Source: a virus. Taken from it: a DNA stretch of 64,000 nt. Location of the stretch: the IMG/VR virus record IMGVR_UViG_3300045976_000117, positions 10,299 to 74,298 of that record, one strand, 5' to 3'. The position numbers and the translations under genes are program-made. Each line of letters starts with the position of its first letter. Within the stretch, counting starts at the first letter, position 1. The notes below the pieces were generated by a model. The model had not been told where the DNA came from, did not search any database, and saw nothing but the letters and a program-made list of their open reading frames with translations. Positions 36,923 to 37,716 of this stretch are shown piece after piece.

Positions 36923-37112
36923 GGGGGCTACGAGGGGGTCAACTGTTGCGGGTCTGTTGCGCAACATCAGGTGCCCTGTTGACCCTCTCTGTCAACCCCC
37001 TGGCTACATGGTCATACCTCCCGATTGTCCGGGTATCCGAGCGCGTACTCCAGTGCGCATCCGCAGGTACTGACCGGGTACTCACGCGAGTACTCAGGGG
37101 AGGTGAGTACCC

Positions 37113-37322
37113 GTGGGCATTGCACTTCTGATACTCGTGGGAGTACTCGCGGTTTGGGCGCGTCATTGCTGGCGTTGGCCCTATGTGACCTGCAAACATT
37201 GCGAGGGCAAGAAGCGTGAGTACTCGTCGGACGGCGCGTACTTCCGAGACTCTGAGTGCGCGTTCTGCCTCACCAACGGGTATCGGTACCGGTGGGAGCT
37301 TCGATGGCTGACCCTGCTGTGA
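37113..37322 (+). CDS. Small TM plus Zn-finger protein of the type found after traB
   Basis: GGAGG RBS; WPY..CxxCxG.K.......FR...CxxC...G pattern. Confidence 0.7.
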   Translation: MGIALLILVGVLAVWARHCWRWPYVTCKHCEGKKREYSSDGAYFRDSECAFCLTNGYRYRWELRWLTLL

Positions 37323-37351
37323 GTACCCGCAACATCGCTGACCTGTCCAGC

Positions 37352-37380
37352 TTGACAGGGGTCATCTGTCCGGGTACTTT
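37352..37380 (+). promoter_or_regulatory. Sigma70-type promoter flanked by both operator types
   Basis: TTGACA-17 nt-TACTTT; 16-bp palindrome over the -35 box and 20-bp site at 37381-37400. Confidence 0.8.
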
Positions 37381-37415
37381 GTGCCTAGGAACTTAGGCAG
37401 TTGAGAGGTAGAAAG

Positions 37416-37716
37416 ATGAGTACTCGGAAAAGTGTCAAATCGACCCATGCGGGGACTTGTTCGCAGCGTCTGCAAGATCGTACGCAATGGGTCCGAAACA
37501 CCGGACAGAAGGCCGGACAGTTTGGGGCTGTAGGGCTGTTTACTTTGACTCTGGCGGGCTGTGGTGGCCATGCATTCCTCGACAACAGCCCGACCTGCGG
37601 CTGGTGGATGGTACGGCGTCACCCATGTCAACGTGGACGGCAAAATGGTTCCGTGCGTGACTTGGAAAAATGGCCACGCGGGCGGAATCAGTTGTGATTT
37701 TGCGGGGTCGAAGTGA
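37416..37716 (+). pseudogene. Frameshifted lipoprotein gene
   Basis: Lipobox LAGC in one frame; DGKMVPCVTWK..HAGGISCDF in the +1 frame, whose stop overlaps the next GTG. Confidence 0.55.

Follow-up and report, generated by a model that had tools for sequence, protein, structure and literature searches.

Why would a tailed phage carry a dense cluster of one short DNA word directly behind the gene of a DNA pump? The question is raised by a stretch of 64,000 nucleotides (the window; all positions refer to it unless a relative is named) from an IMG/VR virus record of 74,298 bp. This record is estimated to be 78% complete and contains tail, lysis, DNA polymerase A and helicase genes; the host replicon of the cluster is a tailed actinomycete phage. 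A preliminary description of the window had proposed a clt-like site, that is, a cis-acting locus of transfer at which the product of an adjacent traB gene would be loaded onto the phage genome. The genes around the cluster are arranged as follows.

33903..34772, + strand: membrane protein with C-terminal HTH; its stop overlaps the translocase start
34769..36922, + strand: FtsK/SpoIIIE-type dsDNA translocase, 717 aa
37113..37322, + strand: small conserved gene, 69 aa, with N-terminal TM helix, CxxC...CxxC and C-terminal YRYRWELRWLTL
37416..37697, + strand: next gene, 93 aa; its position is conserved in relatives and its ATG is overlapped by GAGTACTC at 37418

Further downstream, small genes and a gene for a YdjM-like hydrolase follow.

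All 12 GTAC cores counted in the preliminary description were found again at the same positions (37045, 37067, 37078, 37090, 37107, 37143, 37220, 37238, 37286, 37323, 37374 and 37420), and 7 of these 12 form the centre of a full GRGTACYC octamer. The individual sites and their grouping are given below.

37043 and 37065: degenerate array sites
37076: octamer GGGTACTC
37088, 37141, 37218 and 37418: octamers GAGTACTC
37105 and 37321: octamers GAGTACCC
37043..37152: array core, with full sites at 37076, 37088, 37105 and 37141
37321..37425: distal array, with GAGTACCC at 37321, GGGTACTT at 37372 and GAGTACTC at 37418

The array has a length of about 390 bp, and it is real and local. In a sliding-window count over the whole 64 kb, the density of GTAC peaks here with 11 cores in 400 bp, the best window elsewhere containing 7. 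The full octamer GRGTACYC occurs 10 times in the window in comparison to 2.9 +/- 1.6 times in 100 dinucleotide shuffles, of which none reached 10. Counted over the entire record of 74,298 bp, 7 of its 11 copies are concentrated in 350 bp (37076-37425), where about 0.02 are expected (Poisson p near 1e-16, calculated from the record counts). The local enrichment over the genome background that the preliminary description presupposed is hence clearly present. The four octamers outside the cluster correspond to the chance level; three of them lie in the window, all within long ORFs.

The own word GAGTACTC is a perfect or near palindrome, and the 10-mer flanks of the array suggest two copies in plus orientation followed by five in minus orientation. 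A perfect inverted pair of 11 nt is formed by CGGGTACTCAC (37075-37085) and GTGAGTACCCG (37103-37113). The first octamers are located 123 bp past the translocase stop at 36922. Only 10 bp past the same stop, an inverted repeat begins, which had been described as preceding the octamers and could be verified as GAGGGGGTCAAC and GTTGACCCTCTC (36932-36943 and 36978-36989), an imperfect pair with 92% complementarity.

36932..36989, no strand assigned: 12-bp imperfect inverted repeat, containing the relatives' word GGGGTCA

Enclosed by its arms are the palindrome GTTGCGCAAC (36956-36965) and repeats of CTGTTGCG and CTGTTGAC. Folded as RNA, the stretch reaches -47.4 kcal/mol (z = -3.4), and the element may be a terminator or a hairpin, or else constitute a second site class. 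Of the GGGGTCA type, three copies are retained in the own genome: one at 36935, one in the repeat's second arm and one at 37358. Inside the hairpin a second repeat class was observed between 36943 and 36997 (CTGTTGCG twice, CTGTTGAC and GTCAAC twice); in relatives, repeats of (C/T)TGTTGAG and CTCAAC occur at corresponding distances from the stop (+34/+35, +55/+56 and +68/+69).

For comparison, the own DNA was set beside three related loci (L001-L003, with translocases 51-53% identical) and a distant one (L004, 31%). These four were the sole yield of scans of viral and metagenome contigs, and two contig scans revealed no relative in prokaryote genomes. The region past the translocase stop is syntenic in L001-L003, and each of them exhibits a locally enriched word. 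Words and offsets from the stop are listed here.

Own genome: +154, +166, +184, +219 and +400(-)
L001: word GGGGTCAT(G), at +152, +168, +176, +197, +222 and +389(-)
L002: word AGGGGTCA, at the same offsets as in L001
L003: word GGGGTAYT(C), plus some GGGGTCA, at +130, +141, +151, +203, +222 and +389(-)

One degenerate pattern, GRGT[AC][ACT]T, catches all four arrays. The word of L001-L003 (GGGGTCAT or GGGGTAYTC) is asymmetric and occurs mostly on the plus strand, with one to three inverted copies distally, past the small gene. Counted over whole records, 5 of 16 copies in the complete 95.8-kb genome and 8 of 17 in a 40-kb fragment are found at this spot, which is again the sole cluster of the word. 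Most copies in the relatives sit upstream of the small gene and not within it; four copies of L003 are spaced by 10-11 bp. Start codons are overlapped by copies in L001 and L003 too, and in L001 AGGGTCAT lies on the -10 of the promoter. The position of the array is conserved across the phage lineage while the word drifts.

In L004, a contig with 67% GC, the module occurs in the order translocase, YdjM-like protein, DnaJ-type Cys-rich protein and small TM-CxxC protein; L004:5844-6125 belongs to this reordered module. After its translocase stop (L004:4160-4240) lies the densest 80-bp window of GGCAG/CTGCC in the locus, weakly significant and composed of two direct and two inverted copies. Phage Tomas from the Streptomyces BE cluster has no array past its FtsK-like gene. 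On NZ_CP108056.1, one of the Streptomyces plasmids matched by the translocase (see below), the 220 bp after the FtsK gene contain six copies of GTAGAG/CTCTAC in mirror arrangement, with one copy elsewhere in its 8.9 kb. These repeats of the plasmid, which belongs to Streptomyces sp. NBC_00285, are intergenic (L008:5305-5525) and accompanied by long inverted repeats; its FtsK comprises 863 aa, and a gene for a 'RRQRL motif-containing zinc-binding protein' is located just upstream.

The small gene is conserved alongside the pump in L001-L004, including the 31%-identical L004. As described before, part of the array is woven into its coding sequence (37113-37322), with full sites at 37141 and 37218 and partial ones at 37236 and 37284. 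Two further sites mark its borders: one abuts the start (37105, in the SD/start region), the other overlaps the stop (37321). Sites of this kind could be a by-product of the protein sequence, and a codon-resampling test was applied in which synonymous codons were redrawn by each genome's codon usage. The own gene contains 2 sites vs 0.20 expected (p = 0.002). For L001, 4 sites compare to 0.39 expected, a number reached in 0 of 3000 resamplings (p below 0.0003). Since the sites exceed the resampled expectation, the array is a selected DNA element and not a by-product of the protein sequence. The codons of a shared G-V-L illustrate the different spellings (GGA GTA CTC in the own genome, GGG GTC TTG in L001, GGG GTA CTC in L003), and W-G-L-H of L001 (TGG GGT CTT CAT) is replaced by W-G-I-H (TGG GGT ATT CAT) in L003.

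The protein encoded upstream of the array had been labelled traB. Its nature as an FtsK/SpoIIIE-type translocase is backed by a PHROG match (FtsK/SpoIIIE-like, E 4e-11) and by Foldseek with the model of the protein, which returned the FtsK motor 2iut (E 2e-15) and also the conjugation coupling protein TcpA; the name traB itself we infer. The Pfam family FtsK_SpoIIIE (PF01580) scores 17.4 bits, under its cut-off of 24, and NCBIfam gave 0 matches for every protein of the module, the translocase included. The architecture is that of a TraB-type translocase: N-terminal TM segments (hydrophobic helices near residues 156-200), an FtsK motor in which both Walker motifs are intact (A, GGKS; B, DE), and a predicted C-terminal winged helix (residues about 625-717, topology H-S-H-H-S-S). 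With VIA, the C-terminal domain matched winged-helix domains only, generic ones with Z 5-6.5, and FtsK gamma was absent among the matches listed; Foldseek of this domain alone gave no match below E 0.05. The model supports the assignment of the domain to the winged-helix fold class, but not a specific likeness to FtsK gamma.

Among 14 homologues of the translocase (identity 39-69%) Walker A and B are invariant. In homologues at 50-54% identity, the recognition helix and wing are 38-47% identical vs 60-65% for the motor. All 17 tblastn matches against plasmids are Streptomyces plasmids (24-28% identity; 25-27% over the motor for plasmid translocases), and all 34 matches in phages belong to Streptomyces BE-cluster phages at about 23% identity. 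A megablast search against phages gave no match.

How far the locus resembles a clt can be judged from the systems described so far. The repeat word of the pSVH1 clt is GACCCGGA. According to the passages of PMC3583192 and PMC4447253 that deal with pSVH1, its TraB reads repeated 8-bp motifs via alpha-3 of the winged helix, and the portion of PMC3583192 on pJV1 gives nine 9-bp direct repeats plus inverted repeats for the clt of that plasmid. For pWTY27, the clt consists of the last 16 bp of traA and the adjacent 159 bp; besides inverted repeats it contains 7-bp direct ones (TGACACC, CCCGCCC), and it is bound specifically by TraA (PMC3583192).

With pWTY27 the present locus shares the type of pump (TraA of 688 aa with two TM segments, here a translocase of 717 aa) and a site that extends from the 3' end of the gene across the next ~160-190 bp, is built of 7-8-bp and inverted repeats and is partly coding. 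It differs in the word (TGACACC/CCCGCCC vs GRGTACYC) and in the replicon (plasmid vs tailed phage), and the array is longer here and runs through a second gene. Moreover, binding and the cis requirement for transfer were demonstrated for pWTY27 and are predictions for the present array. Similar to pSVH1 and pJV1, words of 8-9 bp lie by traB, and a C-terminal winged helix is placed on an FtsK-like hexameric pump. The repeats of these two plasmids are direct, whereas the word is a palindrome or near-palindrome here and direct mostly in the related phages. Two features expected of a clt, a location at or after the 3' end of a tra translocase gene and multiple local repeats of 5-9 bp, were found, the former with like offsets in L001-L003.

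Octamers are read by chromosomal relatives of the pump. KOPS of FtsK and SRS of SpoIIIE are 8-bp words recognised by a C-terminal winged helix, which occur chromosome-wide and strand-polarised. An 8-bp word beside an FtsK-family pump with C-terminal winged helix is common to these systems and the present one; in contrast, the word is confined to a ~400-bp locus here, the 4 copies elsewhere in 74 kb corresponding to chance.

We consider the GRGTACYC cluster, together with the preceding inverted repeat, as a candidate clt-like docking site for the adjacent pump, and we give this reading about an even chance of being correct. By analogy with the plasmid systems, the C-terminal winged helix of the membrane-anchored FtsK/TraB-type translocase would bind the short words, the pump would form hexamers on the double-stranded DNA of the phage itself, and it would drive this DNA through the membrane or a hyphal septum. 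We infer that the array is bound by the translocase, that the pump is loaded in this way and that the phage genome is the cargo. Several observations point towards the pump as the reader of the array: the adjacency with its precedent in the plasmids, the lower conservation of helix 3 and wing compared to the motor, the invariance of the HTH helix in the upstream protein though the word differs, the repeats after the FtsK gene of NZ_CP108056.1, and the separate operator of the next promoter. The comparison of word and winged helix comprises four genomes, among which co-variation is inseparable from overall divergence.

Position, anatomy and comparative data fit the loading site proposed in the preliminary description, while the regulatory readings suggested by the overlaps with start codons and a -10 stay in competition with it. 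The same description had noted that a near-palindromic word would be atypical for a clt. The own word is indeed palindromic, but this concern is softened because the word of the relatives is asymmetric and mostly direct and because published clt loci contain inverted repeats as well. Nevertheless, the palindromic own word would suit a dimeric regulator better than a head-to-tail reading of the KOPS type by FtsK gamma domains. A regulatory role is hinted at by those copies that overlap start codons, a stop codon or a -10. Further points count against the docking site: the ~390-bp array exceeds the published clt loci (50-175 bp), the winged-helix matches are generic and of middling Z, the Pfam score stays below the cut-off, and phage Tomas has no array.

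The regulatory role can be formulated more precisely: the octamers would be operators for a dimeric, Kor-like transcription factor gating the small membrane-protein operon that follows the pump gene. Kor regulators are known from the kil-kor circuits of Streptomyces plasmids. Besides the palindromy of GAGTACTC, this explanation is favoured by the sites on the SD/start of the small gene (37105), on the -10 at 37375 (GGGTACTT at 37372, and AGGGTCAT in L001) and on the ATG at 37416; the four copies of L003, 10-11 bp apart, would lie on one helix face. The promoter in question, however, is already equipped with a different operator word.

37352..37397, + strand: promoter-like element, TTGACA (37352-37357), 17-nt spacer and TACTTT (37375-37380)
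37384-37397: operator-like 14-mer CCTAGGAACTTAGG, following TACTTT

An exact copy of CCTAGGAACTTAGG is located at 23254-23267, upstream of a gene starting at 23296. With up to 2 mismatches, 3 matches were obtained vs 0.28 expected, the third at 26162-26175. With a separate operator word at the downstream promoter, which a second promoter shares, transcription control does not depend on the octamers. Furthermore, the octamer stands at no other promoter of the genome, its copies in the window outside the cluster being intragenic, and 7-12 sites over 390 bp, several of them deep in coding sequence, go far beyond the need of an operator. The relatives' word is asymmetric and direct, and searches of the module with Pfam, PHROG and NCBIfam recognised no regulator gene in it. 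Overall, we regard operators as an unlikely explanation of the array.

Alternatively, the array might be read by another protein of the module, either the small TM/zinc-ribbon protein or the upstream HTH protein, which would tether the DNA at the membrane. A precedent for the former is SpdA2 of pIJ101, a protein with a zinc-finger motif match that binds palindromes in and at the start of spdA genes adjacent to tra genes (PMC4170104). What both have in common is a spread module with a palindromic word that is repeated in and near the gene of a small zinc-finger-motif protein, and the sites in and around the CxxC...CxxC gene, kept together with the pump even in L004, would be in line with it. 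However, sps is represented by 1-3 copies of a conserved palindrome of 12 bp, CGTCACGTGACG, and SpdA proteins are soluble, with 117-163 aa and a conserved N-terminal DNA-binding domain (PMC4170104). Here, 7-12 copies of an 8-mer unlike this word accompany a 69-aa membrane protein with N-terminal TM helix and no similarity to SpdA, so that the locus differs from an sps/SpdA pair. The copies of the relatives, in addition, lie mostly upstream of the small gene.

The upstream protein is a 4-TM protein whose frame is open from 33696, leaving its true start uncertain. Weak leads connect it with DUF2637, SpdB_N and KfrA_N, the weak KfrA_N matches being those of two relatives (E 0.017 and 0.087). Its HTH is conserved and could bind DNA. 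Its third helix, HTCKK(L/V)L.(E/D)WR, is nevertheless the same in all four phages, in contrast to the word, which differs between the lineages. In our estimation, a reader other than the pump is quite improbable for both proteins.

A replication origin with iterons or a centromere-like partition site is far less probable again. The short repeats, spaced by 11-17 bp and flanked by inverted repeats, resemble iterons, and RepA of pWTY27 binds repeats of 8 bp and 7 bp (PMC3583192); the curve of cumulative GC skew in the window is lowest a few kb upstream. This minimum, however, coincides with a switch of gene orientation near 32 kb; no AT-rich stretch is present at the array, the DNA polymerase A and helicase genes are 16-26 kb away, and ParB_N was not found in the own record or the complete relative. 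No adjacent Rep-like gene was recognised either, in a record that is ~78% complete and holds many ORFs without family match. Three further candidates were rejected: a restriction-site artefact, as GTAC is neither avoided nor enriched genome-wide (269 observed vs 248 expected in the window); a packaging site, as the array lies mid-genome with the terminase region far off at the left end; and pairing of self-complementary 8-mers in the mRNA, as the relatives' words are direct and not self-complementary.

Neither an integrase or resolvase (tyrosine/serine recombinase) nor ParB_N was found in the own record or in the complete relative, and the rep and/or int genes that characterise plasmids and AICEs with a TraB-type translocase are not seen with this pump. 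The complete relative (the record of L002, 95,770 bp) possesses direct terminal repeats. From the lack of recombinase and ParB_N together with these terminal repeats, the lineage looks virulent, or at any rate not plasmid-like. The pump may consequently spread phage DNA rather than a plasmid.

A parallel is pZL12, a plasmid prophage of Streptomyces with a tra gene and ParAB according to the passages on it in PMC3583192 and PMC4487206. Both are virion-encoding actinomycete elements with a conjugation-type tra gene. Unlike pZL12, the present lineage showed neither an integrase nor ParB, and terminal repeats are present in its complete relative. The passages on pZL12 in these two texts (PMC3583192, PMC4487206) describe no clt. 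Homologues of SpdB2 on actinophages were reported by Thoma et al., who suggested that they may aid the spread of phage DNA (PMC4447253), and the module described here would fit this idea.

We tentatively put forward, as a possibility rather than an expectation, that an apparently virulent tailed-phage lineage keeps a plasmid-style pump with its address label and pumps replicating phage double-stranded DNA across hyphal cross-walls or into neighbouring cells without virions; the word would co-evolve with the pump and have drifted from an asymmetric to a palindromic octamer. If true, phages of mycelial actinomycetes would have a way to spread that does not require a capsid. To our knowledge, Streptomyces conjugation is the only system that transfers unprocessed dsDNA between cells by means of one FtsK-like pump and a short cis-acting site. 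Phages that spread their genomes without particles would change the view of plaque spread, host range and gene flow in antibiotic producers. The pump and the 500-bp fragment offer a cheap and concrete test of such particle-free spread, and the drifting word with its synonymously kept sites provides natural material on how winged helices read DNA.

Some minor observations concern the surroundings of the array. L001-L003 share the TTGACA of the downstream promoter as well as its spacer word TGTCCGG. At the place where the own genome has CCTAGGAACTTAGG, the relatives exhibit a GTACTAGG...CTAGTAC palindrome; the sharing of CCTAGGAACTTAGG between promoters points towards a regulon apart from the octamer array. 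All four phages keep a TGTCCGG core unchanged at +104 from the stop, a second copy being that in the spacer of the TTGACA promoter. The 74-kb record contains exactly two copies of the longer word TGTCCGGGTA, both of them here (37026-37035 and 37367-37376), and TGTCCGGGTA/TGTCCGG could be recognised by a particular sigma factor or regulator.

Elsewhere in the window, ARAGORN reported a 92-nt 'tRNA-Asp' with anticodon ATC at 5208-5299, odd in length and anticodon and situated within the structural gene block. On the minus strand at 56660-59392, a helicase of 910 aa (ResIII/Helicase_C) contains a LAGLIDADG/Hom_end insertion at residues about 224-299, which is probably an intein or a homing-endonuclease insertion.
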